Source of the DNA: Saprospiraceae bacterium
GTDB lineage: Bacteria > Bacteroidota > Bacteroidia > Chitinophagales > Saprospiraceae
Length of the DNA: 64,000 nucleotides
Direction of reading: 5' to 3'
Assembly: GCA_042095835.1 (NCBI GenBank)
Contig: JBELML010000010.1
Coordinates: 21,186-85,185 of the forward strand
In this document: positions 3,724 to 53,498 of the stretch, in pieces
Layout: every line of letters starts with the position of its first letter
Numbering within the stretch: position 1 is the first letter of the stretch
Program-made: the position numbers and the translations under genes
The notes under the pieces: generated by a model
What the model was told of the DNA's origin: nothing
Database searches by the model: none
The model's input: only the letters and a program-made list of their open reading frames with translations

Positions 3724-3731
3724 TATATTTG
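3724..3731 (+). promoter_or_regulatory. Candidate Bacteroidota -7 promoter box (TATATTTG, matches TAnnTTTG) for porV
   Basis: Exact match to the TAnnTTTG consensus, 28 nt upstream of the ATG at 3759, inside the 287-nt porU-porV spacer. Confidence 0.4.
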
Positions 3732-3758
3732 CAAAAAAAATTTAAAAAGATACCTTCC

Positions 3759-22437: not shown

Positions 22438-22438
22438 A

Positions 22439-23479: not shown

Positions 23480-23539
23480 AATTAGGATGAATAAAACGCT
23501 CCTGTAAAATTATAAAACAAAAAAGACAAGTCCTGCCAA

Positions 23540-23565
23540 CTCACCGGCACTTCACCCCAGTTCAC
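23540..23565. promoter_or_regulatory. Candidate regulator (LytTR?) site: three helically phased TCACC direct repeats
   Basis: aacTCACCggcacTTCACCccagTTCACCtg has TCACC at 23540, 23551 and 23561 (spacing 11 and 10 nt). It sits in the 143-nt divergent spacer between the kinase and the ABC genes. CCAGTTCAC shares 6 of 9 positions with the AgrA-type ACAGTTAAG half-site. Confidence 0.25.
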
Positions 23566-23622
23566 CTGATTTTGCTTCCAATCCCATTCTGTATTGCATA
23601 CTTTGTACACGAATCTACCATA

Positions 23623-24498
23623 ATGCTAAATATGCTTCACATCCAGAATCTCAATAAAACTTATCCAAACGGCGTCAAAGCTTTAAACAACCTCTCCTTG
23701 ACTTTAGCCAAAGGCATGTTTGGTCTTTTGGGGCCAAATGGCGCGGGAAAATCAAGTCTAATGCGTACTATCGCCACCCTCCAAACACCAGATAGTGGTC
23801 TACTTTCTTTTAATGGCATAGACTTGCTAAAAAACCCCATGGAACTCCGCAAAACTCTTGGTTATTTGCCCCAATCTTTTGGCGTCTACCCGAGGGTTTC
23901 TGGAGAACGCCTGCTGCATTATTTTGCTCAACTTAAAGGAATTGCCTCCAAGAAAGACCGCAATAAGATGGTGCAATATGTGTTGGAACTTACCAATCTT
24001 TATGATGCCCGCAAGAAAGCGGTCAGTGGCTATTCAGGTGGTATGCGCCAGCGCTTTGGCATTGCCCAATTATTGCTCAACCAACCGCAACTAATCATCG
24101 TAGATGAACCTACAGCCGGATTAGATCCTGCCGAGCGCAACCGCTTCTTGAACGTCCTGCGCGAAGTCGGCACCGATCATACGGTGATCTTCTCGACCCA
24201 CATCGTAGAAGATGTCAAAGAACTTTGTACAGACATGGCCATCATGCACCAAGGTCAAGTCATCCAGCATACCACTCCTCAACAAGCTTTGCAAGAATTG
24301 GAGCAGAAAATTTGGGTAGCGGATATAGAGAAACCAGCACTAGCTCAATATCAAACCCAATATCAAGTCCTTTCTAATAGCTTCAACCCAGATCACTCTA
24401 TTCAATTGCGGGTATTCAGCGAGGTATGCCCAGGCCCTCATTTTAATCCTTCTATTCCTCACCTGGAGGATGTCTACTTTATCGCCCTTGCTCAATAA
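23623..24498 (+). CDS. ABC transporter ATP-binding protein (ABC-2 type partner)
   Basis: Walker A GLLGPNGAGKSS, signature YSGGMRQR, Walker B LIIVDEPTAGLDP. The likely start is the ATG at 23623 or 23632 rather than the TTG at 23572. Confidence 0.85.
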   Translation: MLNMLHIQNLNKTYPNGVKALNNLSLTLAKGMFGLLGPNGAGKSSLMRTIATLQTPDSGLLSFNGIDLLKNPMELRKTLGYLPQSFGVYPRVSGERLLHYFAQLKGIASKKDRNKMVQYVLELTNLYDARKKAVSGYSGGMRQRFGIAQLLLNQPQLIIVDEPTAGLDPAERNRFLNVLREVGTDHTVIFSTHIVEDVKELCTDMAIMHQGQVIQHTTPQQALQELEQKIWVADIEKPALAQYQTQYQVLSNSFNPDHSIQLRVFSEVCPGPHFNPSIPHLEDVYFIALAQ

Positions 24499-24526
24499 TT
24501 TATTCGCCATTTATTAAACCTTTGCT

Positions 24527-27500
24527 ATGTTCTGGTCTATCTTTAAATACGAAGTTAAACATTGGTTGAGGCAGCCGGCAACCTACCTTTATTATATCGT
24601 CTTTGCCGCTATTGCTTGGTTCCTTTTTGTAGGTTCCGCAGGGTATTTTGATGGGCCTTCTACTGCGAGTGGACCTCAAAAGCTTTTGAATAGTCCCTTG
24701 GGTATTCACTCTTTCTTCCAGTATTTTGGGAAGTTTATTTTGTTCCTATTGCCAGCGATACTAGGACAAGGCTTGTACCGTGACTTCAGTAGTAATACTT
24801 ATCAGCTCATGTACAGTTATCCCATTTCAAAGCCAGCCTATTGGTGGGCCAAATTATCTAGCGGTTTAGTTGTGGTATTGCTGATCTCTACGGCCCTTGG
24901 AGTAGGTCTCCTCCTGGGAGAATATACACCTGGTTTGGACAGGGCTCGAATGGGGCCATTTCAAGCTATGGCTTATCTTAGAGCATATCTGGTACATCTT
25001 TGGCCGAACTTATTGAGCTACGGCCTTTTGGTATTTTTGATAGTGGCCTTAAGTAGAAATATCTACGCCGGTTTTTTAAGCATTTTAGGTCTTTACATCT
25101 TACAACTAATCAGCCAAAATGCCTTTGCTAATCAAGCTTACTATATCGGTCTATTCGATCCTTATGGACAAAATACGGTGGCCTATCTCACTCGCTTTTG
25201 GACTTTGGAGGAGCAAAATACCAAGCATTTCCCCATTCAAGGTATCTTACTCAACAATAGACTACTCTTTTTTGGTGCGAGTTTATGTTTGATGATATGG
25301 GCCTATCGAAAGTTTCAACTACACACACAATCCCCACTATTTCGGACTAAACGTCTCCACCTGAGCTTTGGTAAAAAAGCAAACCCAAAAAGAATAAACA
25401 CTGCTTTTACTCCTCAAGTAAGCATCAGTTTTAGTAGCTGGCAAAACTTAATCCGCAGTTGGCAGTTGGGTGTTTTCCACTTAGGAACCATTCTTAGCAG
25501 TTGGATATTCCAAAGTTTGGTAGGTCTAGGACTCTTGGCTATGGTCTTTGCTTTGGGTAGAGTCACCAACACAGGGGAGATGACCGTATTGCCTCTTACC
25601 AGGATCATGCTGACGGTACCAGCCACTTTTTTCAACCTCATCATCATGATTTTGACCTTTATCTATACTGGGATGCTGGTACATAAAGACCGTAGCAACC
25701 AGATGGACCAGTTAGTCGATAGTACGGCAGTACCGAATAGTGTTTTATTTGGTGCGCCCTTTTTTGCTATTCTTCAAATGCAAATCATCCTGCTATTCAC
25801 TATGATGATTGCTGGAGTGAGCTTGCAGATATATAATGGATATTATCATTTCGAATGGGGTCTTTACTTCTACCACTTATTTGGGATTTATTTGATCAGT
25901 TTGGTGATTTGGGCCTTGTTATCCTTTTTCATCCATAATATCTTGCCCAATCCTTATTTGGGTATCTTCCTTCTATTCCTGATGTGGATAGGCTTTGCTA
26001 ATCTTCCTCAACTCGGCATAGATACTAAAGTACTGGCCTTTAACTCCCCAGAGACACTGCGCTACTCTGATATCAATGGTTTTGGTCATGGTCATCGCAG
26101 CTACTGGAGGCTCGAATGGTATTGGTTGACGCTAGCTTTGCTACTAGCATTATTTAGTAATCTTCTTTGGAGAAGGGGTGTAGTCAATCGACTAGTAGAA
26201 CGGGCCAAACAAATAAGGGTTCGTTGGAATCGGATGACAAGTGTCCTTGTCTTAGCCTTAACATTACTCGTTATAGGCCAGGGATTTAGCTTACTTACAG
26301 AAGAAGCGAAAGCGATCTCCAGAGACATAGAAAATCAGCTTTTTAAAGATTTTGAGCAGGCGTTTGCCAAATACAGCGGCACCCAACAAGCTCAAATCAA
26401 AGCGATAGACTTACACATCGATTTATTCCCTGAAGAAAACAACTTCCGCGCTAATGGCAGCTATCTCCTACATAATGAAAGTGATCAATACATCGATACC
26501 ATCCTCGTCAAGGCGGGATTTGGAGAGCGTAGTACCTTTGACTTTGATCGTGCATTCCAGATGATTGACCAAGATACTTTTGTACAATTCTTTGTCTTTC
26601 AACTAGACCATAAACTAGCGCCTGGTGATTCCCTACAAATGAATTTCTCTATTCGAAATCAAGCCAACACCCTTTTTGAACGCCGATCAAATATTCTAAA
26701 AAATGGCACCTTTCTGCAAAGTGATATCTTTCCGCGTTTAGGATATTTCTTAGAAGAATACACTTTAGCGCCTACTGATACGAGCGCGCATCAAACCAAT
26801 ATGCAGTATCCTTTTGCGGACCGTATAGACTTTTCGGCTACAGTAAGCACCTCCGCAGATCAAATCGCCATTGCACCTGGATACTTACAAAAGCAATGGG
26901 AAATAGATGGTAGAAATTATTTCCAATACAAAATGGATCATCCCATCAAGTTTTTATTTAGTATCAACTCTGGTCGATTTAAGGTAAAAGAAGAATCTTA
27001 TAAAGGTACTAACCTCAAAGTTTTCTATCATCCGCAGCACTCCTATAATCTCGAAAAGATGATGGGAGGTCTAAAAGGAGCCTTGGATTATAACAGCGAA
27101 TTTTTCAGCCCTTATCAACATCGAGAAGCACGTATTATTGCATTTCCGGAACCAGAAGGCACTTTTGCTACCACCTCGGCCAATAGTATCCCTACTTCTG
27201 AAATCCGTTTTATAGCCAATACCGATATAGAGGACGAGCAAATTGATATTGCCTTTTACGTATCTGCTCATGAATTGACCCATCAGTGGTGGGGCAACCA
27301 AGTGCTACCGGCCGATGCTCATGGAAGTGCCTTTCTGGTCGAAAGCATCACCGAATACATCAGCCTCAAAGTTTACGAACGCCAATACGGTTTTGAGAAA
27401 GCCATGCAATTCCTCAGAGCACAGCACGGTCGCTACCTTCGCGGGCGAAATCGAGAGCGAGACCAAGAATATCCATTACTGAACCTTAGGCAGCAGCAGC

Positions 27501-28033
27501 AATATCTTTCTTATGGTAAAGGAGCTATGGTATTATGGTCCCTGAGTCAGCAGATGGGAGAAGCAGATTTTAATGCCGTTTTAAAAACATTTTTAGAAAA
27601 ATATCAATTCAAAGCTGCTCCTTATCCAACTTCGGTTGATTTTCTTCAGCATTTACTTTCCGCTGCCCCTGAGCGAATGCACCAAATCATAAAAGATCAA
27701 ATAACGGATGTACAGATTTTCAATAATCGAATCGTCGAAGCCAAGCCGACAAAACTTTCGACCAAGCAATACCAAGTGCAAATTGAGTGTACACTGGAAA
27801 AATTCAGAAGCAGTCTAGAAAACAGGCTTCCATTCGATCAGGCCATTGAAATAGGGTTCTACGACCAGCAAAATCAATTGCAAAGCATCCAAAGATGGAA
27901 GCCCGATCTTGAGCAAAAAAGCAAGACCTTCAGCCTGGATTTCCAAGCATCTAGAGTGGTAATTGACCCCAGGATGCTACTCATCGACCTAGATTTAGAT
28001 GACAACGAAATTTCATTGGCGTGGAGAGATTAA
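24527..28033 (+). CDS. Fusion protein: polytopic ABC-2-like permease region (about 560 aa) plus an M1 (gluzincin) peptidase-like domain
   Basis: Roughly 12 hydrophobic helices fill the N-terminal half. The C-terminal half carries VSAHELTHQWWGN (HEXXH) and a downstream FLVESITEY Glu. It follows the ABC ATPase after a 28-nt gap. Confidence 0.8.
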   Translation: MFWSIFKYEVKHWLRQPATYLYYIVFAAIAWFLFVGSAGYFDGPSTASGPQKLLNSPLGIHSFFQYFGKFILFLLPAILGQGLYRDFSSNTYQLMYSYPISKPAYWWAKLSSGLVVVLLISTALGVGLLLGEYTPGLDRARMGPFQAMAYLRAYLVHLWPNLLSYGLLVFLIVALSRNIYAGFLSILGLYILQLISQNAFANQAYYIGLFDPYGQNTVAYLTRFWTLEEQNTKHFPIQGILLNNRLLFFGASLCLMIWAYRKFQLHTQSPLFRTKRLHLSFGKKANPKRINTAFTPQVSISFSSWQNLIRSWQLGVFHLGTILSSWIFQSLVGLGLLAMVFALGRVTNTGEMTVLPLTRIMLTVPATFFNLIIMILTFIYTGMLVHKDRSNQMDQLVDSTAVPNSVLFGAPFFAILQMQIILLFTMMIAGVSLQIYNGYYHFEWGLYFYHLFGIYLISLVIWALLSFFIHNILPNPYLGIFLLFLMWIGFANLPQLGIDTKVLAFNSPETLRYSDINGFGHGHRSYWRLEWYWLTLALLLALFSNLLWRRGVVNRLVERAKQIRVRWNRMTSVLVLALTLLVIGQGFSLLTEEAKAISRDIENQLFKDFEQAFAKYSGTQQAQIKAIDLHIDLFPEENNFRANGSYLLHNESDQYIDTILVKAGFGERSTFDFDRAFQMIDQDTFVQFFVFQLDHKLAPGDSLQMNFSIRNQANTLFERRSNILKNGTFLQSDIFPRLGYFLEEYTLAPTDTSAHQTNMQYPFADRIDFSATVSTSADQIAIAPGYLQKQWEIDGRNYFQYKMDHPIKFLFSINSGRFKVKEESYKGTNLKVFYHPQHSYNLEKMMGGLKGALDYNSEFFSPYQHREARIIAFPEPEGTFATTSANSIPTSEIRFIANTDIEDEQIDIAFYVSAHELTHQWWGNQVLPADAHGSAFLVESITEYISLKVYERQYGFEKAMQFLRAQHGRYLRGRNRERDQEYPLLNLRQQQQYLSYGKGAMVLWSLSQQMGEADFNAVLKTFLEKYQFKAAPYPTSVDFLQHLLSAAPERMHQIIKDQITDVQIFNNRIVEAKPTKLSTKQYQVQIECTLEKFRSSLENRLPFDQAIEIGFYDQQNQLQSIQRWKPDLEQKSKTFSLDFQASRVVIDPRMLLIDLDLDDNEISLAWRD

Positions 28034-28646
28034 TATGCCCATTCAGACCTTATTTAGCCCGATTCGGACTTTTCTTAACATATTTTTTCAAGCTCTGTTA
28101 AAATAAATTTAAAAAATAACCATTCATATAGTGGTCTTACTTTGTGGGGTAGAAAATTGAGAATAGAAGTAATTCAATTATTTCATACAATCTACTACCT
28201 TTGGTGCGCATTTATAAAAACGAGTCTCCTTCACCAAAGGAGTGCTGTTGTTAAGATGTAATTTCTTTTAAAAGTCCAGCGGTTGATCCCAATAATGAAG
28301 TAGATCTTATTGATATCAGCCGAAATAAGTGGATTTTCTAAAGAACCAATATGTTAGAAGCTATAAATTATAAAAAAAAATATATTTTCGCAGAATTGGC
28401 GAGAGAGGCTATTTAACTGGGAATTATGCACACAGCATTGATCTGTAGTACTTGGTTGATTGAATAATAACAAATCATATCTCCAAATCATAGGGCTTGC
28501 CCTACCCTCCTACTTAGATACGTCCTATCTCCTGTTCTGGTTCAGTATTGAATGAAGATAAATTATCGATTGAGGTGGTAGATCTCTATTCATTACTTAA
28601 TTGAGTAGTAAAATTTTAACTTTTGGATATCTCAAAAACTTATCAG

Positions 28647-29609
28647 ATGTCTGGATTACGTCTAATTGCAATCCTATGTCTTGTTGGCACCGCTAACGGA
28701 CTTTTTGCTCAGCAACTTTCCTTATTCACGCAGTACCGCGAAAACGCAACCATTATTAATCCAGCCGCAGTCGAGTCCGACTTCCTCGTTTTTGGCAATA
28801 ATCTCACCTTTGGAGCTTCCTACCGACAGCAGTGGGTGGGCCTCGAAGGCGCTCCGACTACTCAGGTGGTCCGAGGGAGCTATATTGCCAGTGGAATGAG
28901 TGGCGTAGCCTTGATGGCTGGTGGCCATATCATCAATGATGTGACTGGCCCTACTGGATTTACAGGCTTTTATGGTCGTATCGCAGGTATACTTAGTGGC
29001 GACCCTGAATACGGCGGCCTCGTAGTTGGCCTAAGTGCAGGTTATGTTCAATACCGTGTGAACGGTTCCGAACTAGTCTTCCGAGATGGTGTGGATAATA
29101 TCGGTGGTGTAGATCAATCTCAAATGTATCCCGATTTGGGGGTTGGTTTGTATTATTACCAAGCCGTGGGTGGCGGTCGCTACAGTAGTGACTTCATTTA
29201 TGGTGGGCTTTCCGTACCTCAACTTTTTGGCTTAGACCTGACTTTTCAAAATGATGCAGGAGAGTTTATTACCACAAGGGTGCAGCATATCTATGCCACC
29301 GCTGGTTACATCAAAACCTTCGATAACGAAAGCTTTATCGAGCCGTCGATCTGGGTGAAAAGTGTAGAAAACGCCGACATCAATGTCGATGTTAATCTTC
29401 GATACCAATTACCCTCTACCCTTTGGATAGGTGCTGGTTATTCTACCGCACAAACAATCCATTTGGAGACAGGTTTGGTGCTGAATGAGAACGTAGGACT
29501 AGACAACATGATCAGGATTGGTTATGGCTATGATTATTCCTTCACCTCTTTTGGTCCGACTGCTGGGAATACCCACGAAATCAACGTCACCTTTTCTTTT
29601 GACCGATAA
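28647..29609 (+). CDS. PorP/SprF-family T9SS outer-membrane protein
   Basis: Signal peptide from the ATG at 28647, then QQLSLFTQYRENATIINPAAV and YRQQWVGLEGAPTTQ, which are hallmark PorP/SprF motifs. It is directly upstream of a type-B CTD cargo gene. Confidence 0.85.
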   Translation: MSGLRLIAILCLVGTANGLFAQQLSLFTQYRENATIINPAAVESDFLVFGNNLTFGASYRQQWVGLEGAPTTQVVRGSYIASGMSGVALMAGGHIINDVTGPTGFTGFYGRIAGILSGDPEYGGLVVGLSAGYVQYRVNGSELVFRDGVDNIGGVDQSQMYPDLGVGLYYYQAVGGGRYSSDFIYGGLSVPQLFGLDLTFQNDAGEFITTRVQHIYATAGYIKTFDNESFIEPSIWVKSVENADINVDVNLRYQLPSTLWIGAGYSTAQTIHLETGLVLNENVGLDNMIRIGYGYDYSFTSFGPTAGNTHEINVTFSFDR

Positions 29610-29691
29610 ACAAATGCTTGATATCTGTAGAAGCACAGCCTAGTGATTGCACTTGTTTTGTGCCCTCTTCTATTAAAAATTAATTCAACTC

Positions 29692-32600
29692 ATGAGATTG
29701 ATAAAAAATATAGCACTGTTCGTCACCCTCTTGGTATCCCTACCACTAAGTGTATGGTCGCAAGGAGGTGGTCCTACTTTTTCATTTACCTCTGAAACGC
29801 CATGTACGGGTGATGACTTCTGCCTCGATGTGACAGTAGAGGATTTCACTGATATCTTGGCGATTAAGTTTCCAGTCACCTGGGATACTTCTGTAGTCGA
29901 GTTTCAATCTATCACCAATTTTGGTCTCCCAGGTATGAACCTAGCGGATTTCGATCTTTCTACGGTCAATGAGGGACTGATTCGAGTCAATTGGCAATTC
30001 GATGATTGTGAAGTGGCGACTCAGGGTTCAACTATTCAGGATGATGTCATCATCTTCACCCTTTGTTTCCGAGCTATCGGCGATTATGGGGCCGTTACTA
30101 ATGTGAGCATTCTCAACCAAGACACGGTACTACTTGGCGATCCTGATCCCGTAAATATTCAGCGTTTTGGTATCGATTGTTCGATTGATATTCAAATCAA
30201 CAGTGTCAACCCTGGTGTTGTCTCTACCTGTGTAATTCCGGTAGAACTTTATGCTACGAGTACTCTTGGTAATACCGGCGAACTCGTATCTATCGATGTA
30301 AAATCCAGAGGATTCACAGACCTCAATGCTTTACAATTCACCATGGTCTGGGATTCAAGTATTTTGATGTTGGAGGAAGTCATTCCACTAGAGGCACTGA
30401 TCAACCTCAATGTCAACAACTTTGGTACTCCGGTCAATAACATCAATGTTCCAAGAGGTAATTTGACTTTTACCTGGAACTATATTGACCCTACCGGAAA
30501 TGACTTGGGTGCCACCTTAGTCAACGATGAAAGTGTATTCACACTAAACTTCCGAATCATAGGAGATTGTGAAACTTCTAGCGCTGTGGGTATTGATCTA
30601 AGCGAAGATGCCCTCACGCCCTTGGAAGCTATTAGCTCCCGTGAAGAAAATGGGCAAGTCATCAATGATAATATTCCTTTAATAACCACCGACGGAGAAG
30701 TAGCCACAGGAGCCTGTACCCCTGATGGTTTGATTTTGTTTACCGATTGTGGAGCACCTACTGGCCTAGACTCTATCGTATGTGTTACGGTATCAGCTGG
30801 AGCCATCAACGATTTGACAGATATCCGCTACCTCATGGAGTGGAATCCCAATATACTAGAGTATCAAAACATCAATATCCTGACCAACTCCATGCAAGGA
30901 CTCAATCAGGGAAGTTTTGATGCCGCCAATGCCAGCAATGGTCTTTTAGAATTAGATTGGTCTTCTCTCAGTTCATTATTTAATGCCAGCTTTGTAGAAG
31001 GCGAGCAACTCTACGAGGTATGTTTTAAAGTCGTCGGACTTGGAGGAAATAGCCCGGTAAGGATTGATCCGACAGCTCCCGCAGCCAGAGTTCGTAGAGA
31101 AGGCTCCTTCATTCCAGTAGGTTTATTCCCGAACAATTGCGAGGTAGAAGTCAACCAACCAGCGGGAGTTACACTCAACCTTTCAGACGCGCAAGCACCA
31201 CAAGGCGATACCATGTGCGTAGACATCACCGCTGCGAACTTCAACGAATTGGTCAATCTCCAATTTTCCCTTAGCTGGGAAACGACACATGCTATATATG
31301 CTGGCATTAGAAATATCAATCCTTTACTAGCAGATAGTATCACCATAGATACAGGAGGTATTGGTTCTGGTAGTTTCACCTTCTTGTGGAATAATACCAA
31401 CGGCGTTACCTTAAATAGCGATGAGGTCCTCTTCTCCCTTTGTTTGGCGGCAATAGGTCCCTCACCGGGGGAGCTGTCCCAAAATAATAACTGTCAGGAG
31501 CTACAAGTTGTACCATTTCCATTAGTTGGGCAAGCAAAAAGTCTTGCTTCTCTAGATAATGATATTGGCCTAACGGGGGTCAATGGCGAAATTTGTATCC
31601 TGAACCCAGAAGGATTCTTTCTGGTTGTAGAAAACGAAGAAGGTTTTGTCAACTTTGGTACTTGTATTGATTTCAAAGTTGCGGAGTTTGATAGTATCAC
31701 CTCTGCTCAGTTTTCTCTCAACTGGGATGCTACCGATTTAAGCTTTGATAGTATCGTTTTACGAGATTTTCCAGGTTTGGAGATCGGTACCAACTTAGAC
31801 ACCTCAGCAGTCCGTACCGGATTGATTAGATTCGATTGGACAGACCTACAATCTCAGACAGTAGCCGATAGTACGGTCTTATTTGAGGTCTGTTATACCC
31901 TAATTGGACCTGTGAACACCTGTACAGACATCGAGATCAATAGTGATCCGAATCCCTCTGTTACGACCATCAATGGCGCAGGTAGTGTATTTCCACTTGG
32001 AGGAGGGGTTTGCATCAAAGATACCCTGATTATAGTTGATTCGATCATCACGGCAGTTACCTGTCCAGATGCTATCGATGGCACCATAGAAGTAAGCGTA
32101 ACAGGAGCAACCGGAGAACCTGTCTTTTATAACTGGGTCTCCTTGGAATCCGAAAACGTACCGGTGCAATCTGGCCCTAAGGCAGTCAACCTACCTGTTG
32201 GTCGGGTAGCGGTTACGGCATTTACGCTAACGAATCCACCGTTAGTTACAAGAGATACTTTTTCGATTCCGCTTACTACTGTTTTACCGGAAGCTAATGC
32301 AGGAGATGATGTGGACTTTAATTGTGTAACGGATGCTGCACGTTTAGAAGGTAGCGGATCAACTGGAGATATTTATGATTATCGTTGGACTGCGCTTAGT
32401 GGTACGATCGCTAGTGGCACGGACAACGCTATTGTATTAGTTAGCTCTCCAGGAACTTATGTATTTAGCGTGATCAACTCTGAATCACTTTGTTCTGCAC
32501 GAGACACCATGATTGTACGTAGTCCTGTGATCCCTTCAGTCAACGCTGGACAAGATGTATTCCTAACCTGTGCTGATTCCTCAAAAGTGTTGGATGGAAC

Positions 32601-35367
32601 ATTGTCTTCTCCAACTGATTCGAGTGTTTCTATAACATGGACTGCTTTCTCAGGAGGAGTAATTGAAGCTGGTGAAGCCAATGTGATTTCACCAAGAGTC
32701 AGTCTACCTGGAACGTATGTCCTAGAGATTGCTTTTAAAGAGACTGGATGTTCTGAAACGGATACCGTACGAGTAGAAAGTGTGGAAGAATTCACGCCGG
32801 TATCAGCAGGACCCGATGTGGAATTAAACTGCGATACGAATGGTGTCACTTTATTTGCCAATATTGATAACTCCGTAAGGGACTTTAATTTCTCGTGGTT
32901 TGATGAAAATGACTCGCTTATTATTGTCGATGACCGCGTAAATGTCAATACACCAGGTTTATATCGCATCGTTGCGCAGGATAGAGATAACTTCTGCGAA
33001 ACTACAGATACCATAGAAGTACTGCCTAATAGTCGTCAACCAGTAATCGATTTGATAGATTCCTCAGCACTCGACTGTACGAATCCGACCCTAGACTTGA
33101 TGGCTGTGGTGAGTAATACCGATAGCTTCACCGTTGCTTGGCAAGCATCAGCTGGTGGTGTATTCGAGCAAGATACCACCGATGCTTTAGCCATAACAGC
33201 TACTGCTGCAGGTGTGTTTACGCTTACGATTACAGATACCACCACTAGTTGTATAACCATTGATTCGGTAATGGTCGACAACCAAATCGAAACGATCAGT
33301 GTAGATGCAGGTATAGGTGGCGACTTGACTTGTGAGGCTCCAAACTTGACGCTGCGATCAACAGTAGATACCAGTCTGTCGCTGGAATGGACGCTCAATG
33401 ACAATCCAATTGGCGACCAAGACACGCTAGCCGTAACCACCGCAGGAACCTATTTCCTAACTGCGACCAACCTAGCAACGGGTTGTAATAATATAGATTC
33501 GGTGGCCGTAACTAGCTCGGCTGACTTACCAGAAATCACGGCTCCTAATTTGCCTACTATTACCTGCGAAGAAACCACTGTGGTTTTAAATGCAGAGGTT
33601 ATGCCTAGTGATGCTGATTATGCCTACAGCTGGTCTGTAGTAGATCAAGGAGAAATTGTAAGCGGTGAAAATACGGCTGCGCTTACAGTGGGTGCCGCTG
33701 GAACCTATCTATTACAGGCTACAAATACAGCAACGGGTTGTACTAGTTCCAATAGCTTCACCGTACCAACCGATACCATTACTCCTACGGCTATTGCTGG
33801 AGATGATCAGGTACTCACTTGTACCCAAAATTCTGTCTCTCTGAATGGTGTAGGTTCAGAAGTTGGACTAAATATTGTTTACAATTGGTCTACCCTTGAA
33901 GGTAATGGCATGGCTAGTCCTGCTAATCAGCTACAAACAACAGTGGATGGTCCTGGTACATATATGTTGGAAGTAAGAGATACCCTTACCGGTTGCTCAA
34001 GTACAGATATGGTAGTGGTTACTCCAGATACTGCTTTACCCAATGTTACATTGGCTCCACTTACAGAAGTGTTGACTTGTACCACAAATATGCTAATGCT
34101 TGATGGAACTGGATCTGACTCTGGTGCAGGCTTTTCTGCCAACTGGAATGCCCTAGATGGACAACTTGCCCCACAGACGGGTAACGATCCTTTGATGGCC
34201 TCCGTCACACAAGCAGGAGATTATGAACTTGTCATATTGAACCTAGCCACCGGATGCCAAAGTAATGCCAATATCACCGTAACAGAGGACCGCGACTTGC
34301 CAATGGCTTCTGCAGGAGAAGATGTGACTGTAACCTGTCCAGGAAATCCTGTCAGTCTAGATGGTTCCCTATCAGAACAAGGGCCTAATTTATCCTATAG
34401 CTGGACAACGATCTCTGGCGGTGAATTATCCAATCCTACTTCTTTGGCACCAACTGTTAATGAACCAGGAGAATTTGAAATCGTTGTTACCGATTCTACT
34501 AATGGCTGTACCAACTCAGATATCGTACTAGCGATCTTAGATCCAAACCTAACAGTAGCTAATGCTGGAATGGACGATTCCAGCTGTGATTCCCTTGCTT
34601 TAATTGTAGCAGAACCACCATTAGGCGCAACGGGCTTATGGACGACAACGGGTGCTGCAATTATTGATGTAGCAGATGGAAACTCAACGACCATCAATAA
34701 CTTGCAACCTGGTCCAAACGTATTTGTATGGACACTTTCTACTGCTGACTGTCCTAATTATAGTAGTGATTCTGTCACTGTCATTAGAGAGCAGGCACCA
34801 CAGGCAAATATTGATGCCGTTGATTTACCCGTAGGAACAAATCAGACCACGATTAGTGTGACTGCTAATGATATCATCACCTCCCAAAGTGGTGCCAATA
34901 TCAGCATCGTTTCTAATCCTACTTTAGGTGCGGTTGACTCGGTGACGGGCAACACCGTTACTTATCGGGTAGCGCGAGGAATTGTTGGTGAGGATATGTT
35001 TACTTATGAGATTTGTAATAATGAATGTCCCAACTTATGTGATAGAGCTACGGTCTCTGTAAACGTACCTTTTGACCCTAACTACAGCCCGACGCTCGCC
35101 AATGGTATCACGCCCAACGGCGATGGACAAAATGATGAGCTCAGGTTTGAGGTATTAGAAATTGAGCCAGATGCTTTCCCTGATAATGAGATTATTATCT
35201 TCAATAGATGGGGAGATATTGTTTTCCAAGCCAAACCTTACAACAACAATTGGCGAGGCACCAATGATTCTGGACAAGAATTACCACAAGGAACCTACTA
35301 CTATATTTTGAGACTAGATATCTCAGAAGGTAATATCGTCTCGGGAGATGTGACCATCGTCAAATAA
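29692..35367 (+). CDS. Giant T9SS type-B-CTD surface protein: five cohesin-like modules, an SprB-like repeat, about ten Ig/PKD-like repeats and a cadherin-like domain
   Basis: Signal peptide, then five modules of about 120-150 aa between aa 28 and 775 sharing the pattern C.DV.V..F.D...LQF...WD...L.F......G.(L/I).(F/L).W......V(L/I)F.(L/V)CF. Tandem repeats of about 78 aa of the form (A/V)xAGxDxxLxC...Y.W...G...PGTY......GC..D...V follow. The C-terminal TPNGDGQNDELRF...IFNRWGDIVF...GTYYYIL is a type-B CTD. Confidence 0.85.
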   Translation: MRLIKNIALFVTLLVSLPLSVWSQGGGPTFSFTSETPCTGDDFCLDVTVEDFTDILAIKFPVTWDTSVVEFQSITNFGLPGMNLADFDLSTVNEGLIRVNWQFDDCEVATQGSTIQDDVIIFTLCFRAIGDYGAVTNVSILNQDTVLLGDPDPVNIQRFGIDCSIDIQINSVNPGVVSTCVIPVELYATSTLGNTGELVSIDVKSRGFTDLNALQFTMVWDSSILMLEEVIPLEALINLNVNNFGTPVNNINVPRGNLTFTWNYIDPTGNDLGATLVNDESVFTLNFRIIGDCETSSAVGIDLSEDALTPLEAISSREENGQVINDNIPLITTDGEVATGACTPDGLILFTDCGAPTGLDSIVCVTVSAGAINDLTDIRYLMEWNPNILEYQNINILTNSMQGLNQGSFDAANASNGLLELDWSSLSSLFNASFVEGEQLYEVCFKVVGLGGNSPVRIDPTAPAARVRREGSFIPVGLFPNNCEVEVNQPAGVTLNLSDAQAPQGDTMCVDITAANFNELVNLQFSLSWETTHAIYAGIRNINPLLADSITIDTGGIGSGSFTFLWNNTNGVTLNSDEVLFSLCLAAIGPSPGELSQNNNCQELQVVPFPLVGQAKSLASLDNDIGLTGVNGEICILNPEGFFLVVENEEGFVNFGTCIDFKVAEFDSITSAQFSLNWDATDLSFDSIVLRDFPGLEIGTNLDTSAVRTGLIRFDWTDLQSQTVADSTVLFEVCYTLIGPVNTCTDIEINSDPNPSVTTINGAGSVFPLGGGVCIKDTLIIVDSIITAVTCPDAIDGTIEVSVTGATGEPVFYNWVSLESENVPVQSGPKAVNLPVGRVAVTAFTLTNPPLVTRDTFSIPLTTVLPEANAGDDVDFNCVTDAARLEGSGSTGDIYDYRWTALSGTIASGTDNAIVLVSSPGTYVFSVINSESLCSARDTMIVRSPVIPSVNAGQDVFLTCADSSKVLDGTLSSPTDSSVSITWTAFSGGVIEAGEANVISPRVSLPGTYVLEIAFKETGCSETDTVRVESVEEFTPVSAGPDVELNCDTNGVTLFANIDNSVRDFNFSWFDENDSLIIVDDRVNVNTPGLYRIVAQDRDNFCETTDTIEVLPNSRQPVIDLIDSSALDCTNPTLDLMAVVSNTDSFTVAWQASAGGVFEQDTTDALAITATAAGVFTLTITDTTTSCITIDSVMVDNQIETISVDAGIGGDLTCEAPNLTLRSTVDTSLSLEWTLNDNPIGDQDTLAVTTAGTYFLTATNLATGCNNIDSVAVTSSADLPEITAPNLPTITCEETTVVLNAEVMPSDADYAYSWSVVDQGEIVSGENTAALTVGAAGTYLLQATNTATGCTSSNSFTVPTDTITPTAIAGDDQVLTCTQNSVSLNGVGSEVGLNIVYNWSTLEGNGMASPANQLQTTVDGPGTYMLEVRDTLTGCSSTDMVVVTPDTALPNVTLAPLTEVLTCTTNMLMLDGTGSDSGAGFSANWNALDGQLAPQTGNDPLMASVTQAGDYELVILNLATGCQSNANITVTEDRDLPMASAGEDVTVTCPGNPVSLDGSLSEQGPNLSYSWTTISGGELSNPTSLAPTVNEPGEFEIVVTDSTNGCTNSDIVLAILDPNLTVANAGMDDSSCDSLALIVAEPPLGATGLWTTTGAAIIDVADGNSTTINNLQPGPNVFVWTLSTADCPNYSSDSVTVIREQAPQANIDAVDLPVGTNQTTISVTANDIITSQSGANISIVSNPTLGAVDSVTGNTVTYRVARGIVGEDMFTYEICNNECPNLCDRATVSVNVPFDPNYSPTLANGITPNGDGQNDELRFEVLEIEPDAFPDNEIIIFNRWGDIVFQAKPYNNNWRGTNDSGQELPQGTYYYILRLDISEGNIVSGDVTIVK

Positions 35368-35386: not shown

Positions 35387-35428
35387 AAAAGTCCCGTTTG
35401 GCATGGCCAAGCGGGACTTTTTTTTTAC
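35387..35428 (+). terminator. Rho-independent terminator after the 1891-aa gene
   Basis: aaaagtcccgtttggc-atg-gccaagcgggactttt hairpin with one G-T wobble, followed by a T9 run. Confidence 0.8.
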
Positions 35429-35627: not shown

Positions 35628-38600
35628 ATGTTTTCAAATATTAAGATTAATGGGCTTAAACTAGGCTATTTTTTATTAGCATTCCTAGGTTTTCAAGTAG
35701 GATCGTATGCTCAAGGGCAAGTAGCGCTGGAGATCATCGGCGCCAATGTATTTTCAAATTGTACAGATATTGTCACTCAGGAGGACTTTATGTACGGTGT
35801 CAGCATCGAAGGAGGAGATTATCTTTATTATCCCAAAATTGGCCCCTGTCATACTGCTGCACCTAATGTACAATGGAGTCTATCCTACGAATGCTCTAGC
35901 GAATTACGAGATAGCATTAACCTCTGTTTTCAAATCTTCGAAAACGACGGACTTCCTTTCACTTGTCAAATACTAAAAGAATGCCTAGTAGAAAGATGTT
36001 TTAAGGTGCCCCTCAGTAAAAACCAAGGCAATACCAACTCTACACTCAGCATAAGTCCAGGAAATGATTCCTGGGGAGATCTTTTTATTAGCTTGAGAAA
36101 CTCTAACGATGCCAACGACGAGAATGATCTCATCTGCAATGCTGTCGACTTGGGTAGTCTCACCTTTCAAGACACGATAGGTACTAAACTTCGCTCTGAC
36201 TATCAAAATCTTTGTGCCACCAACTTTGACGAATTCAACCCCGCAGATGAGGGTAGCTTTCAAAACGACGCTGGTGTTTGGTTTAGGTTTCAAACAAGGG
36301 ATATGCCTAGTTCGATTATTCAAATTGAAGCCAATAGCGATCCGTCCAACTTAGGTGACCCTATCGATTTGGAGTTGGCCTTATTTACCAGCGATCAGAC
36401 CTGCTCTGGCAATTTAAGTCTGCTCAAAACAGGCTATGATCTCAATAGCAATAACGCCAGCCTCACCCTTACTTGCCTCAACCCCAATCAAACCTACTAT
36501 CTCTTGGTAGATGGACGCTCTAATCCTGTAGATTTCGTCAAAGGCTATTTTGGCCTACAGATCTCTGCTCAAGGCGTCATCGAAGGTCAGGATATTATTT
36601 GCAATGCAGCCCAATTACAAAGCAGCAGCGGAGAAGGATCGGTAATAGGCGAAGCCTTATTTTCTAATTTCTGCTCTTCGGATCAAAGTGATTCTACCAG
36701 TGCTTGGTTTGAGTTTACAGCTCCCGAATCAGGAAATGTGCTCATCAATAATTTAAGTCAAAGCACCCTCAGCAGTACAGATATCGAGCTCGCTTTATTC
36801 CAACTCGGTAATGGAGACTGCCAAGGTCAGTTGGAATTGATTACCAGCACTGATAATGGCCAATCATTAGAAGCCTCTTGCTTGTATCCAGGCGAAGACT
36901 ATTATGTTCTAGTAAAAAGTAATGGTACCCTGGCGCAGGGTATTTTCAATCTTACGGTTGCTGATGCCGGATTATCTCTACCACCCCAAACTAGCATTGA
37001 AAGTGTACAATGCTATGGTGGCTCCTATACGATTGGCGATACGACCTTTACCGCTTCGGGAGATTATAGTTGGCGTATTCCGCAAGCAGGTACCTGCGAC
37101 AGTCTTGTCAATTTGAATCTAACCATTCTAGATTCCCTAACTGCTGAGATCGACATTGTTCGTCCCGCTACAAATCTAGGCATACAAGATGGTGCAGCGA
37201 GAGTCAGAATAAGCGGTGGTTCAGGCAATTATACTATCGAATGGTGCGATGGTTCTAATACCATTGGAGTTGATAATTTAGAAGGTGGTCAGACCTGCTG
37301 TGTTCAAATTACTGATGAGATTGGTTGTTCCGTTGAGGTCTGTTTTGAAGTGCCCTATCTCGATAAAATTGTCTTGGATTCACTAGACATCAATACGGTT
37401 AATTGTGCGGGAGAGGCTACAGGTATGATCCAATTCATTCCTAAAGGCGGTGTTGCTCCTTATCGAGCCGTTTTACAAGGGCCACTGCCATGCGACAACT
37501 GCGGTATAGTCTATCGTAGAATCACTGGTCCTGTTAACTTTAGTGCCCTTAAAGCAGGCCAATACCAATTACAAGTTTTTTCAAGATTCCAGGATACGAT
37601 TTTGCAAATTGAAATTGCAGAAAACACCATTCTTCAGGTAGATACGATTAGTGTCCAAGCTACCAGCTGTGCTGGTGTCTGCGATGGCTTACTCGAAATA
37701 GCTCCTAAAGGTGGCCTCCCTCCTTACAACTTGATCTGGCAAGACAATTTGAGCAATACCACACTTCGGAGTAATTTATGTGCAGGAAGCTATACCCTAA
37801 ACCTGATAGATAGCCTTGGTTGTGCGATAGATACCTCCTTTGTAATCAATGCTCCACCACCCATCGATGTGCAAGCCCAGGTTATCCAAGCGGTGTCTTG
37901 TGAAGGGGCCAACAATGGAATCATCCAAGCTGTAGCCTCCGAAAACGATCTCAACTACCAGTGGAACAGTGGCCAAACCTCCAATCAGATTGAAGGACTT
38001 GGCCTAGGAACTTATAGTGTATCTGTCACCAACAGCGAAGGATGTACAGGCCAAGCAAGTGTTTCTTTTGAGAATTATGAAGCCCCACTTAGCCTTTCTT
38101 TAGCATTACAAAAATCTGTCTCCTGTAATGGCGGCAGCGATGGGTTCATAGAGGCGCAACTCAATGGCGCAGGCCAAAATTTCACCTATATCTGGAGTGA
38201 TGGAAGTACTCAAAAAAACAATACTAAAGCCAGTGCTGGTCTCAATTCCTTGATAGTACAAAACGAATTGGGCTGCACCGCACAGGATGCTATTTCCTTA
38301 GACCAACCGACCGCTATTGAAGTCGCTTTTGCAATCAAAAATATCGACTGTATTGGTGGTCCCATCAGTGGGCGCTTGAATATCGACTCCGTTTCTGGTG
38401 GTAATGGTGGTTACAGCTATGCCATTGATGGTGGAGGCTTCACCTTTGACCCCGAGCTGAATTATATCCCAGAAGGTAATTATATGCTACAGGTCAGAGA
38501 TCAAAAAGGTTGCCAAGCCTCCTTCCCTTTTGAGCTAGAAGGTCCGCCAGATGTAAAAGTCACCATACCCGAAAATGAAGATTTACTTTTAGGCGATTCA

Positions 38601-39086
38601 ATCACGATAAGGCCAAGGGTTAATATTAGAAATTTAGAATTTTTCTGGTTCCAGGGACAAGAAAATTTCTCCTTTGATCAGACTGTAAAGCTATCTCCAC
38701 AACAGACCACTGGGTATATTGTCCAAGCATTTGATCCAATATCCGGCTGTAGTGGTTTCGATACTTTACTTGTTTCGGTTGATCAGCGCAGAAGAGTCTA
38801 CATTGCTAATGTCTTTAGTCCAAATGGTGATCAGGTGAATGACTATTTCGGCATCCAAGGCGATTTTGATATCGTATCCATTGCTCAGCTTTCTATTTAT
38901 AACCGAAATGGAGCCCTCCTCTTTAACAAGGAGAACTTAATGCCCAATCAGCTTGAGACCGGATGGGATGGTCTGATGCCTAGTGGCGAACCGGCTCCGG
39001 CGGGCACCTATATCTATCTAGCTAAGATTACTTTTATTGATGGCAAGACAGAAGTCTTTAGAGGAGATGTGAGTGTAATAAGGTAG
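35628..39086 (+). CDS. T9SS type-B-CTD surface protein with two PPC-like N-terminal modules and multiple SprB repeats
   Basis: Signal peptide and a duplicated module of about 150 aa (LICNAVDLGS...YYLLVDGRS / IICNAAQLQS...YYVLVKSNG). SprB-type repeats are present (VNCAGEATGMIQFIPKGGVAPY, TSCAGVCDGLLEIAPKGGLPPYNLIW, VSCNGGSDGFIEAQLNG...YIWSDG). The C-terminal FSPNGDQVNDYF...IYNRNGALLF...GTYIYL is a type-B CTD. Confidence 0.85.
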   Translation: MFSNIKINGLKLGYFLLAFLGFQVGSYAQGQVALEIIGANVFSNCTDIVTQEDFMYGVSIEGGDYLYYPKIGPCHTAAPNVQWSLSYECSSELRDSINLCFQIFENDGLPFTCQILKECLVERCFKVPLSKNQGNTNSTLSISPGNDSWGDLFISLRNSNDANDENDLICNAVDLGSLTFQDTIGTKLRSDYQNLCATNFDEFNPADEGSFQNDAGVWFRFQTRDMPSSIIQIEANSDPSNLGDPIDLELALFTSDQTCSGNLSLLKTGYDLNSNNASLTLTCLNPNQTYYLLVDGRSNPVDFVKGYFGLQISAQGVIEGQDIICNAAQLQSSSGEGSVIGEALFSNFCSSDQSDSTSAWFEFTAPESGNVLINNLSQSTLSSTDIELALFQLGNGDCQGQLELITSTDNGQSLEASCLYPGEDYYVLVKSNGTLAQGIFNLTVADAGLSLPPQTSIESVQCYGGSYTIGDTTFTASGDYSWRIPQAGTCDSLVNLNLTILDSLTAEIDIVRPATNLGIQDGAARVRISGGSGNYTIEWCDGSNTIGVDNLEGGQTCCVQITDEIGCSVEVCFEVPYLDKIVLDSLDINTVNCAGEATGMIQFIPKGGVAPYRAVLQGPLPCDNCGIVYRRITGPVNFSALKAGQYQLQVFSRFQDTILQIEIAENTILQVDTISVQATSCAGVCDGLLEIAPKGGLPPYNLIWQDNLSNTTLRSNLCAGSYTLNLIDSLGCAIDTSFVINAPPPIDVQAQVIQAVSCEGANNGIIQAVASENDLNYQWNSGQTSNQIEGLGLGTYSVSVTNSEGCTGQASVSFENYEAPLSLSLALQKSVSCNGGSDGFIEAQLNGAGQNFTYIWSDGSTQKNNTKASAGLNSLIVQNELGCTAQDAISLDQPTAIEVAFAIKNIDCIGGPISGRLNIDSVSGGNGGYSYAIDGGGFTFDPELNYIPEGNYMLQVRDQKGCQASFPFELEGPPDVKVTIPENEDLLLGDSITIRPRVNIRNLEFFWFQGQENFSFDQTVKLSPQQTTGYIVQAFDPISGCSGFDTLLVSVDQRRRVYIANVFSPNGDQVNDYFGIQGDFDIVSIAQLSIYNRNGALLFNKENLMPNQLETGWDGLMPSGEPAPAGTYIYLAKITFIDGKTEVFRGDVSVIR

Positions 39087-39710: not shown

Positions 39711-41327
39711 TTATTTTTTAGCGATGCGTGACTTAAACAACAACTGCGTATCTGGATCTAGGCGGATAGATTTCGGCACAGCTCCTCGTATCTCTATCTT
39801 TTTTGACACCTCTTTCTCATCTATTTCTAGTTCAAAAAGTAAAAGATCTTCGCCCTTTTCATCTAGTACTTGCACCTTTAATGGAAAAGCAAATGGAGCA
39901 GCCTGCTTTTGCACTACCTCTATCGAAAGGGCATTCGTCGTGGAGTTGAAATCCCAATTCACCTGTAAGTCTGGTAAACCAGGTTGGAAAAACCACTGCT
40001 GAAAAAAAGTATCTAGTTCCTGGCCAGAAACCACCTCCATGATGTGCTTAAAATCTTCGGTATAAGCGTTGGAAAATTGATATTTCTGATAATACCTTTT
40101 TATCCCTTTCCAAAAAACATCCGTCCCCACTTTTTGCCGAAGCATATGTAATACCCAAGCGGCTTTTTGGTAAGTATTAGTACTTAAGACCTGATTATAA
40201 TCGGTGATCGTCGTATCTACAATGGGCTGCTTGGGGTTTTGACCAGCGTAGCGAATGATATTGGTGCGATCTGTCTGTAGGCGATCAACGAGTACATCTC
40301 TGCCGTGATTATGCTCGAAATAAAGGTGGGTAAAATAAGTAGCAAAGCCTTCACTCAACCACACGTGATGCCAATCGGCCTCAGAGGCGGAATTGCCAAA
40401 CCACTGGTGGGCAATCTCATGAGCAATGAGTCCCTCGCGTTCTTCCTTACCAGTCACGCTATTCTCAAAATAGAAAATGTTCGAGGCGTTCTCCATACCT
40501 CCCCATCGAGTTTTAGATTGCACATTGGCCAATTTGGTATAGGGATAAGGCGCGACATGTGTATGGAACCAGTCGAGTACGCCCACGGCATCATCATAAT
40601 CTACAAAACCCGCTGTCCGATTTTGTGGAAAAACCCAGCTGGTCACTGGTATCTGATCTACCATGCCCGCCAATTGAACTGCAAATTCGGCAGCGCCTAC
40701 CACCATCACTTTAGTTGGGAGTGGTACATCACAACGCCAGGTGGTGCGCTTGGTACCATCCAGGAGATTGGTCTCTTCTATTTTTCTACCGGTACCTACT
40801 ACCTCATATTTTGCAGGAGCATGAACAGTGAAGGCTACCGTCGCTTTCTCCGAAGGGTGATCTACAGTGGGCAACCAATGTCTAGCCCGATTAGGCCAAT
40901 TATCACCAAAAAATGTCCTTCCCCCAAACTTATTTTCACCGATGACCATACCATCCTCTGGTATCCCTTCGTAACTAATGTTAAATTGGTAGGGTTCGTT
41001 GATCAATAGATTTTTAGGTATTTCTATAAACAATTGATCTTGCCAATGTCTGTAGGCTACTTCCTGGCCATCCAGCTCCACCTGACGAACCAACATCCCT
41101 TTCCCTGTGGTCTTTTTCACAATTAAGTCCAAGGCCAGCTCTTCGACTGCTTTTTTAAGTACAAAATCTATCCTAGCCTGACCTTTGATCAGGTTGCTCT
41201 CATCTGATAATTCAAGTTGAAAATCGTAGTGTAGAATATCAAGGCTGGCTTTTCGCTCTAAATGCTGCTGTGCGCATAAAAAAGAGGAAAAACAGCACAG
41301 ACATAGGACTAGAAAAAGGTGACGCAT
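39711..41327 (-). CDS. Secreted M1-family zinc metallopeptidase
   Basis: Signal peptide, a GAMEN-type exopeptidase motif (WGGMENAS), and HEIAHQWFGN followed by WLSEGFATY (HEXXH-X18-E). Confidence 0.9.
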   Translation of the reverse strand: MRHLFLVLCLCCFSSFLCAQQHLERKASLDILHYDFQLELSDESNLIKGQARIDFVLKKAVEELALDLIVKKTTGKGMLVRQVELDGQEVAYRHWQDQLFIEIPKNLLINEPYQFNISYEGIPEDGMVIGENKFGGRTFFGDNWPNRARHWLPTVDHPSEKATVAFTVHAPAKYEVVGTGRKIEETNLLDGTKRTTWRCDVPLPTKVMVVGAAEFAVQLAGMVDQIPVTSWVFPQNRTAGFVDYDDAVGVLDWFHTHVAPYPYTKLANVQSKTRWGGMENASNIFYFENSVTGKEEREGLIAHEIAHQWFGNSASEADWHHVWLSEGFATYFTHLYFEHNHGRDVLVDRLQTDRTNIIRYAGQNPKQPIVDTTITDYNQVLSTNTYQKAAWVLHMLRQKVGTDVFWKGIKRYYQKYQFSNAYTEDFKHIMEVVSGQELDTFFQQWFFQPGLPDLQVNWDFNSTTNALSIEVVQKQAAPFAFPLKVQVLDEKGEDLLLFELEIDEKEVSKKIEIRGAVPKSIRLDPDTQLLFKSRIAKK

Positions 41328-41622
41328 CTTTTTATGCCTAAATTAAGAGGAAATTTTGATTGGAGACTAGTCCTATTTCCTATTTTTCTTCCAAATAGCT
41401 GCCGACTCCTATTTCTTCCTGCCCAAAAAATGCACTTTCACCATTCCATACTCCCTGAATACTGGCGTATTTTTCTCTTTAAAATAGAAGGATTCTATGG
41501 TGTGTTTTTTCTTTACATAAGGGGCCGTTTAGCTCGTTGGGGCACCATCAATATTCGATTTCTGATAAATAAAAGCCTACTCTAGAGGGATCAGATTTGG
41601 ATTGTTTTAATATCTTGAATAC

Positions 41623-46572: not shown

Positions 46573-46593
46573 AGTTTATTTGGAGTAAAATCC

Positions 46594-47670: not shown

Positions 47671-47868
47671 AGTAATTGGTGTATCTCCCTACAAATAAAG
47701 CAGGATTAGCTCCTAAAATACAGTTATTTCCGTCGAATCGACAAATAAGCCGATGAATGAAGCGTCCTGCTACTCATCGATCTATTTGGTCACTCAACGG
47801 ATAACACTTTTATATAAAGGCGTACTAGTGCAATTTTGAAGCATCAAGAAACAAATCACCCAAAGTTT

Positions 47869-53357: not shown

Positions 53358-53498
53358 GGGAGTGAGTCCGTTTTTGGGTTAAACTGTATAGATCAGTTTT
53401 GCTTTCTATACACTTACTTCGTATAAGATATTAACGTCTAGCCTTCAGATAAAGTATATCTGAATAGGTCAACGAAACGCCACAAAAGTAGTAATTAT

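Follow-up and report, generated by a model that had tools for sequence, protein, structure and literature searches.

What does a giant surface protein of the Saprospiraceae do with a row of cohesin-like modules at its N-terminus? The question is raised by a 64,000-nt stretch of a Saprospiraceae bacterium contig (JBELML010000010.1, positions 21,186 to 85,185; the whole stretch is hereafter called the window), in which a gene for an outer-membrane beta-barrel of the PorP/SprF family stands 82 nt upstream of a gene for a 1891-aa protein with a type IX secretion system (T9SS) C-terminal domain (CTD) of type B. Both open reading frames (ORFs) are as an initial annotation of the window had described them, and the same annotation proposed that the protein may be a T9SS-anchored scaffoldin with type I cohesin modules. 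With about even confidence, we read the two genes as a type-B cargo and its shuttle that would build a statically anchored fibre, carrying a multivalent binding head of five distinct, probably disulfide-stapled cohesins.

The five modules that the initial annotation had seen by eye are confirmed as divergent tandem copies occupying aa 29-780. All ten pairs are found by BLASTP with E values from 2e-14 to 3e-5 and identities of 22-31%, and the five strand motifs that had been quoted lie at aa 44, 199, 363, 508, and 658. The modules adjoin directly, with no Pro/Thr-rich linkers between them in the sequence. A Cys-containing first strand had been ascribed to every copy; this fails for module 2, which lacks both conserved cysteines (VSIDV and TLNFRI). 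The N-terminal 803 aa match the Pfam Cohesin hidden Markov model (HMM; PF00963) with 69.3 bits (E 5e-19), and modules 1 and 2 each exceed its cutoff of 24.1 bits when scanned singly, which substantiates the cohesin assignment by profile. Modules 3-5 give no Pfam Cohesin match when scanned singly, and they count as cohesins because they are homologous to modules 1 and 2. Of 17 aligned modules (A2), taken from the window protein and three relatives, 12 match Pfam Cohesin on their own, the best reaching 1.6e-15.

A scan of the whole 1891-aa protein against Pfam (E up to 1) and NCBIfam gives no Cohesin match, and the precomputed public Pfam list for the exact protein holds only PKD, Ig_2, K319L-like_PKD, and CHU_C, without Cohesin. 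Taken as a refutation of the cohesin assignment, the whole-protein result was overturned by scanning the modules and the N-terminal half separately. Among 25 aligned full-length family proteins, all of which contain CHU_C, Pfam Cohesin is matched in 23 (best 1.6e-37). The window protein is therefore an outlier in being missed, and the missed match looks like an artefact of the HMMER filters in a minority of long multi-domain proteins.

A sequence search against the Protein Data Bank (PDB) gives weak matches (E about 0.1), six of ten of which are cohesins; a phmmer search that used the 803 N-terminal aa returns nothing useful. Structure prediction is more informative. The AlphaFold models of module 1 (pLDDT 89.3, pTM 0.84) and of module 3, the weakest by sequence (pLDDT 91.7, pTM 0.85), both have exclusively cohesins among their top 50 Foldseek matches in the PDB, with E values down to 3.6e-10 and TM-scores of 0.6-0.76 for these predicted, not solved, structures. 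The best E value, 3.6e-10, belongs to module 1, whose sequence identity to solved cohesins is 11-20%. Neither a carbohydrate-binding module (CBM) nor a generic immunoglobulin (Ig) domain occurs among the top 50 matches of either module, and the lack of a CBM there makes a CBM reading of the modules less likely. The matches span types I, II, and III as well as the non-cellulosomal cohesins of Clostridium perfringens and Archaeoglobus fulgidus, and TM-scores are highest against type I and Ruminococcus flavefaciens cohesins; the label 'type I' is thus not specifically established. By HMM and predicted fold, the modules are genuine members of the cohesin family.

The modules share a pair of cysteines, one in strand 2 (vCvDV) and one in strand 7 (FxxCF). 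Counted over 749 near-full-length family modules, both are present in 662, both are absent in 85, and a single one is found in 2, so that the two residues agree in 747/749 modules (phi 0.99). A second cysteine pair co-varies likewise in 114 modules (phi 0.95). In module 1 of the window protein, which has 44 cysteines in total, the main pair is formed by aa 44 (29821-29823) and aa 125 (30064-30066), and modules 3-5 have cysteines at the equivalent positions. From this co-variation we infer conserved intramodule disulfides, which are probably present in four of the five window modules. We know of no such cysteine pair in cellulosomal cohesins.

The protein belongs to a large family. An exhaustive profile search with A2 against 1.84 billion representative proteins yields 10,264 matching proteins when E may reach 1e-3, and 1,162 under the stricter limit of 1e-30. 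We examined the layout of 154 proteins, comprising the best listed matches, the window protein, and four relatives. The module array begins within 60 residues of the N-terminus in 148 of them, exactly five modules are present in 86 (range 3 to 13), and 118 end in a type-B CTD, the remainder being mostly short fragments. The window protein can be aligned from end to end with 24 complete five-module members, to which it is 21-42% identical. Where source names are given, the proteins are called 'gliding motility-associated C-terminal domain-containing protein [Saprospiraceae bacterium]', and one fragment that is 89% identical (P0001) is named 'cohesin domain-containing protein [Bacteroidota bacterium]'. 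An A2 search of the annotated database returned a single fragment, since the word index cannot reach such divergent domains. The cohesin content of the family is visible to routine annotation. The rarity implied by the initial annotation does not hold: the family is large, most members are already flagged as Cohesin by Pfam, and a cohesin scaffoldin with a T9SS CTD has already been proposed (PMC8542988). The five-cohesin type-B cargo with its PorP/SprF gene is a conserved and common combination of two known kinds of protein, namely non-cellulosomal cohesin proteins and type-B T9SS cargo.

We compared the window with three orthologous loci (L001-L003) from metagenome-assembled genomes (MAGs) of Saprospiraceae or Saprospirales, whose giant proteins are 38-53% identical to the window protein over the head. 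L002 comes from OZ245751.1. A PorP/SprF gene stands directly upstream of the ortholog in all three, in agreement with the pairing seen in the window. The PorP/SprF proteins are 75, 69, and 60% identical to that of the window (L001, L002, and L003, respectively), more than the cargo proteins (38-57%). The PorP/SprF gene and the giant gene are the only unit common to the window and the three loci; the remaining flanking genes are common among L001-L003 and different in the window. The pair is a conserved, mobile unit. Within the head, every window module finds its best match at the corresponding position of each of the four orthologs (31-65% identity, compared with 18-36% between non-corresponding positions), indicating that the array is old and that its five positions are distinct and separately maintained. 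Module 5 is the best-conserved module in L001 and L002, with 65% identity to its counterpart in L001.

The window PorP/SprF protein matches Pfam PF11751 (2e-42) and TIGR03519 (168.6 bits, cutoff 90.55), and we predict that it serves as cognate shuttle and anchor for the type-B cargo encoded downstream. According to published work, type-B cargo binds the PorP/SprF-like protein that is cognate to it and relies on it (PMC9143113, PMC12618676). Shuttle-dependent secretion and anchoring have been demonstrated only for pairs of Flavobacterium johnsoniae and Porphyromonas gingivalis (PMC12618676, PMC9143113), and anchoring of the giant protein at the surface through its PorP/SprF partner would follow by analogy with such pairs (PMC9143113). 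SprF requires a Cys-X-Cys motif in its periplasmic C-terminal tail, which bonds to the GldK track, for coupling and sustained track movement (PMC12635249). The mature window PorP/SprF protein and its three orthologs contain no cysteine and no Cys-X-Cys, and the sequence stops at the last barrel strand without a C-terminal tail. Part of the type-B cargo of F. johnsoniae is static and not driven by the track, for example Fjoh_3952 (PMC12618676). Because such static cargo is known and the Cys-X-Cys tail is missing from all four proteins, static anchoring is predicted, and the sequences suggest a static localisation of the giant protein.

The features of the gene pair are collected in Table 1. In keeping with a type-B cargo, the giant protein begins with a predicted Sec signal peptide, read from its sequence, and the initial annotation was right about its type-B CTD, which matches CHU_C (PF13585; 80.8 bits, 8.1e-23, cutoff 27) and TIGR04131 (45.1 bits, cutoff 35). 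Between head and CTD, nine PKD-like repeats are recovered by iterative self-search (E 1e-18 to 3e-37). In relatives, the segment that corresponds to the junction is a SprB repeat; such repeats are recognised in 18 of 25 of them but are not significant in the window protein itself. Big_9 is present in 10 of 25 relatives. Public-assembly gene callers start the PorP/SprF gene at the ATG at 28647 (320 aa), and an exact-protein match exists for the ATG form and none for the TTG form; the exact 1891-aa protein is found on 7 metagenome contigs. A terminator-like hairpin follows the giant gene and no terminator is found in the 82-nt intergenic gap, so the two genes seem to form a single unit that does not include the next gene. 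A non-coding gap of 613 nt (28034-28646) precedes the PorP/SprF gene, and promoter candidates in it are limited to a TAnnTTTG motif (28196) and a sigma-70-like site (28075-28104). The promoter scans are uninformative, with 25 sigma-70-like sites against 23.4 expected by chance, and the Bacteroidota TAnnTTTG motif is at chance level (64 against 62.7). Rfam and tRNA scans of the window give no match, and the Rfam scan gives none in the 28034-28646 gap.

Table 1. Coordinates of the PorP/SprF gene, the giant surface-protein gene, and their features in the window
Feature	Position	Strand	Basis or remark
PorP/SprF-family outer-membrane beta-barrel gene	28647..29609	+	320 aa from ATG; alternative in-frame TTG start at 28623
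Giant type-B-CTD surface protein gene, 1891 aa	29692..35367 (stop codon included)	+	ORF listing
Predicted Sec signal peptide, MRLIKNIALFVTLLVSLPLSVWS	29692..29760	+	By eye: basic N-terminal region, then hydrophobic core
Cohesin module 1, aa 29-184	29776..30243	+	Pfam Cohesin 31.7 bits (cutoff 24.1)
Cohesin module 2, aa 185-347, without the conserved cysteine pair	30244..30732	+	Pfam Cohesin 31.9 bits; BLASTP to module 1, E 1.4e-12
Cohesin module 3, aa 348-493	30733..31170	+	BLASTP to module 1, 5e-9, and to module 5, 3e-10; AlphaFold/Foldseek
Cohesin module 4, aa 494-642	31171..31617	+	BLASTP to module 1, 2e-11, and to module 5, 7e-13; module HMM 170.8 bits
Cohesin module 5, aa 643-780	31618..32031	+	BLASTP to module 1, 2e-14
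Junction, SprB-repeat-like segment, aa 781-864, ITAVTCPDAIDGTIEVSVTG...	32032..32283	+	Aligns with family consensus
Stalk: nine PKD-like (K319L-like) repeats of Ig fold in tandem, aa 865-1615	32284..34536	+	PF22352, 4.8e-27
Big_9 bacterial Ig-like domain, aa 1701-1790	34792..35061	+	PF17963, 22.9 bits, E 1.6e-4, just under the cutoff of 23.6
Type-B T9SS C-terminal sorting domain, aa 1802-1889	35095..35358	+	PF13585 CHU_C, TIGR04131
Intrinsic-terminator-like hairpin	35387..35421	+	16-bp stem, then T-run; begins 20 nt past the stop of the giant gene

Whether the protein is a scaffoldin depends on partners as well as on cohesins. It carries several cohesins on one polypeptide in which Pfam and NCBIfam scans find no catalytic domain, and it has a surface-anchoring device, the type-B CTD with the adjacent PorP/SprF barrel, which is analogous and not homologous to S-layer homology (SLH) domains or sortase anchoring. 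Pfam scans of the whole giant protein and of its N-terminal half reveal no CBM, a module typical of primary scaffoldins, even when E values up to 1-10 are allowed. The initial annotation had seen no dockerin in the window, and indeed no ORF of at least 150 aa has a Pfam Dockerin match; likewise, the six-frame ORFs of at least 80 aa from the window and from L001-L003 (~54 kb) contain no calcium-loop motif of the dockerin type. Its proposal of a scaffoldin function is so far unsupported: neither a dockerin nor any other recurrent partner domain appears in the 64-kb window or in the ~54 kb of orthologous loci, which are small samples of the genomes. Among the 154 family proteins, five contain dockerin-like loops; none of the five has a type-B CTD, and all but one (P0064) have a type-A CTD. 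In the other four (P0003, P0114, P0146, and P0150), the dockerin-like segments stay below the threshold, at 12-20 bits. The segment of P0003 had been taken by eye for a dockerin and, at 19.6 bits against a cutoff of 22.9, is treated as dockerin-like only. In P0064 (aa ~215-290 and ~830-905) and P0003 (aa ~930-990), the dockerin or dockerin-like module lies between cohesin modules, and a CarboxypepD_reg domain adjoins the second P0064 copy and the P0003 module. A second, two-loop dockerin-like type ('VWPGD...') precedes the type-A CTD in P0114, P0146, and P0150. A dockerin-like profile (A3) gives no match in the annotated database, whose word index cannot reach such short domains. A literature search found no paper on cohesin arrays on type-B cargo and none tying dockerins to Saprospiraceae.

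Comparison with known systems places the protein between several of them. The anchoring scaffoldins of Firmicutes (OlpB and SdbA of Clostridium thermocellum; ScaB, ScaC, and ScaE of R. flavefaciens) are likewise non-catalytic, secreted proteins with tandem cohesins and a C-terminal surface anchor, and Firmicutes scaffoldin modules are among the fold matches (5lxv, E 3.6e-10; 5nrk, TM-score 0.76). Here, however, the anchor is a T9SS type-B CTD with a PorP/SprF barrel in a Gram-negative outer membrane instead of SLH domains or sortase, a PKD/Ig stalk of ~1000 aa separates head and anchor, and no CBM or dockerin partner is found. In primary scaffoldins such as CipA, the cohesins are nearly identical to one another and Pro/Thr-rich linkers connect them; the cohesins of the window protein also depart from those of the Firmicutes scaffoldins in their low mutual identity, direct abutment, and conserved cysteine pair. 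Fold matches at E values of 1e-5 to 1e-4 include non-cellulosomal cohesins with demonstrated dockerin partners, from C. perfringens (glycoside-hydrolase toxin complexes; 2jh2, 2vo8, and 2w1n) and A. fulgidus (2xdh). They too lie outside a cellulose-degrading context, but they are single modules in enzymes or small proteins, in contrast to the five-module array on a T9SS fibre. A scaffoldin-like protein of 'Ca. Stygibacter' (Cloacimonadota), inferred from MAGs, embodies the same concept as the initial annotation (Williams et al., 2021, PMC8542988). That genome encodes dockerin-bearing GH18, GH57, and S8 and C25 peptidases, and its scaffoldin contains CBM2/CBM3 (PMC8542988). In the present locus, by contrast, neither dockerin enzymes nor a CBM are found, the CTD is of type B with a dedicated PorP/SprF, and the host is a Saprospiraceae-type Bacteroidota. 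The F. johnsoniae pairs SprB-SprF and Fjoh_3952 with its shuttle are cargo/shuttle pairs of the kind that is conserved across genomes here too, and they differ in that the cargo of the window has a five-cohesin head and that its PorP/SprF gene lies upstream of the cargo gene. Because it has no Cys-X-Cys tail, the window PorP/SprF resembles the static class (Fjoh_3952) more than SprB-SprF.

If the pair is a cargo and shuttle that build a static fibre, the Sec machinery would export the 1891-aa protein, which would fold in the periplasm and form the strand 2-strand 7 disulfide in four of its five cohesin modules. The T9SS would recognise the C-terminal type-B domain, and the adjacent PorP/SprF-family barrel would take up the giant protein and retain it in the outer membrane. 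The nine PKD-like repeats and the other Ig-like domains would then form the stalk, with the five cohesins at the N-terminal tip, farthest from the cell. The head would act as a multivalent binding device, most likely of the adhesin type, for protein ligands on other cells, on particles, or on further copies of itself; we rank such a head as more likely than an enzyme-recruiting scaffold. Several points weigh against this reading. The disulfides are deduced from co-variation among related, non-independent sequences, and a binding partner of any kind has yet to emerge for the predicted binding head. Loss of Cys-X-Cys is proven to matter only in SprF, and other mobile type-B systems might couple otherwise. 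In P0064, five cohesins (171 bits) stand together with a Dockerin_1 match of 30.6 bits (cutoff 22.9). To our knowledge, moreover, every experimentally tested cohesin-family module binds a dockerin-type partner, including the non-cellulosomal ones of C. perfringens and A. fulgidus, and this favours a scaffoldin over a generic adhesin.

In a true scaffoldin, each cohesin would dock a protein that the same bacterium secretes and that carries a dockerin or another tag, with up to five specificities on a T9SS-tethered multi-enzyme platform. We regard this as possible, although on the unlikely side. It agrees with cohesin family membership by HMM and fold and with the many solved cohesin-dockerin complexes among the fold matches, non-cellulosomal ones included, and the position-specific conservation of the five modules would fit five specificities. 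A dockerin (P0064) and dockerin-like segments do occur in the same cohesin clade, but the motif scan flagged no dockerin-like loop in family proteins with a type-B CTD, and the window ORFs of at least 150 aa and the window and L001-L003 are without Pfam Dockerin matches and calcium-loop motifs, respectively. For Cloacimonadota, a scaffoldin that combines tandem cohesins with a T9SS CTD has been inferred together with dockerin-bearing enzymes (PMC8542988), whereas no dockerin-Saprospiraceae connection was found in the literature, and type-B cargo is generally regarded as adhesins (PMC12618676). The lack of a detectable CBM and the direct abutment of modules that are only 22-31% identical, without Pro/Thr-rich linkers, also speak against a scaffoldin. 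A bolder form of the idea, which we hold to be decidedly doubtful, is a widespread Gram-negative counterpart of the scaffolds in Saprospiraceae and their relatives: a static T9SS fibre on which five non-interchangeable, disulfide-stapled cohesins would each recruit a different tagged protein, as a five-slot assembly line for polymer degradation or prey attack.

Two further explanations concern what the fibre is for and what its modules are. The architecture resembles that of SprB in its giant, repeat-rich type-B cargo, its neighbouring gene of the SprF family, and its SprB-repeat-like junction. The PorP/SprF partner might carry the protein on a helical track for traction, and the cohesin head would be a mere substrate-contact tip. 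The relatives annotated as 'gliding motility-associated' and the helical movement of a non-SprB type-B cargo, Fjoh_4750 (PMC12618676), are in line with such a mobile gliding adhesin, but the database name reflects the CTD family only, and the PorP/SprF protein and its three orthologs have neither the Cys-X-Cys tail nor any cysteine in the mature protein. We mark this explanation down to very unlikely because the tail is missing. Little probability is also left for cohesin-fold modules without a specific protein partner, whether as structural spacers that lengthen the fibre or as carbohydrate-binding modules, whose beta-sandwich the cohesin fold resembles in some cases. Beta-sandwich modules are common passive elements of surface fibres, a partner is yet to be identified, and the identity to solved cohesins is low; however, all 50 best fold matches of the two modelled modules are cohesins and none is a CBM, the array sits at the distal N-terminus and not inside the stalk (within 60 aa in 148/154), and the separate conservation of each position across species exceeds what a simple spacer needs.

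The surroundings of the pair provide T9SS core genes and further candidate cargo. porU (Peptidase_C25, 4e-102; type-A CTD), an ORF running off the window start, adjoins porV (7e-55) at window 1-4970, about 24 kb upstream; the remaining T9SS core genes lie beyond the window. Two more type-B-CTD (CHU_C) proteins with SprB repeats are encoded at 35628-39086 (+) and 50289-53378 (-), neither beside a PorP/SprF gene; by analogy with three F. johnsoniae orphans for which this has been shown, these 'orphan' cargo proteins may share a shuttle. The 35628-39086 protein recurs downstream of the L003 ortholog and not of the L002 one, and its N-terminal 450 aa give only a 34-aa galactose-binding-like match below the cutoff (19.8 bits against 27). 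The stretch 23491-28033 holds an ABC ATPase gene and, after it, a gene for a 1168-aa protein with a C-terminal M1-peptidase domain and a hydrophobic N-terminal half, putatively membrane-spanning as judged by eye; a second M1 peptidase is encoded at 39714-41342 (-). Two LytTR response-regulator/histidine-kinase pairs flank the region (21682-23509 and 45841-47688, both on the minus strand) and could regulate surface-protein genes, although nothing links them to these genes.

If the cohesin head docks partners, cellulosome-style modular assembly and type IX secretion of the Bacteroidota would become connected, and scaffold-ordered assembly of extracellular proteins would not be confined to Gram-positive anaerobes. 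Synthetic biology would then have, in the five fixed, divergent cohesins, a natural supply of orthogonal docking pairs. Even as an adhesin, the protein and its partner offer a clean, conserved type-B cargo/shuttle pair whose shuttle is without the gliding-track motif, which makes it useful for the static-versus-mobile model. Because the family spans thousands of representative clusters, a function found for the cohesin type-B proteins would apply to many environmental bacteria.

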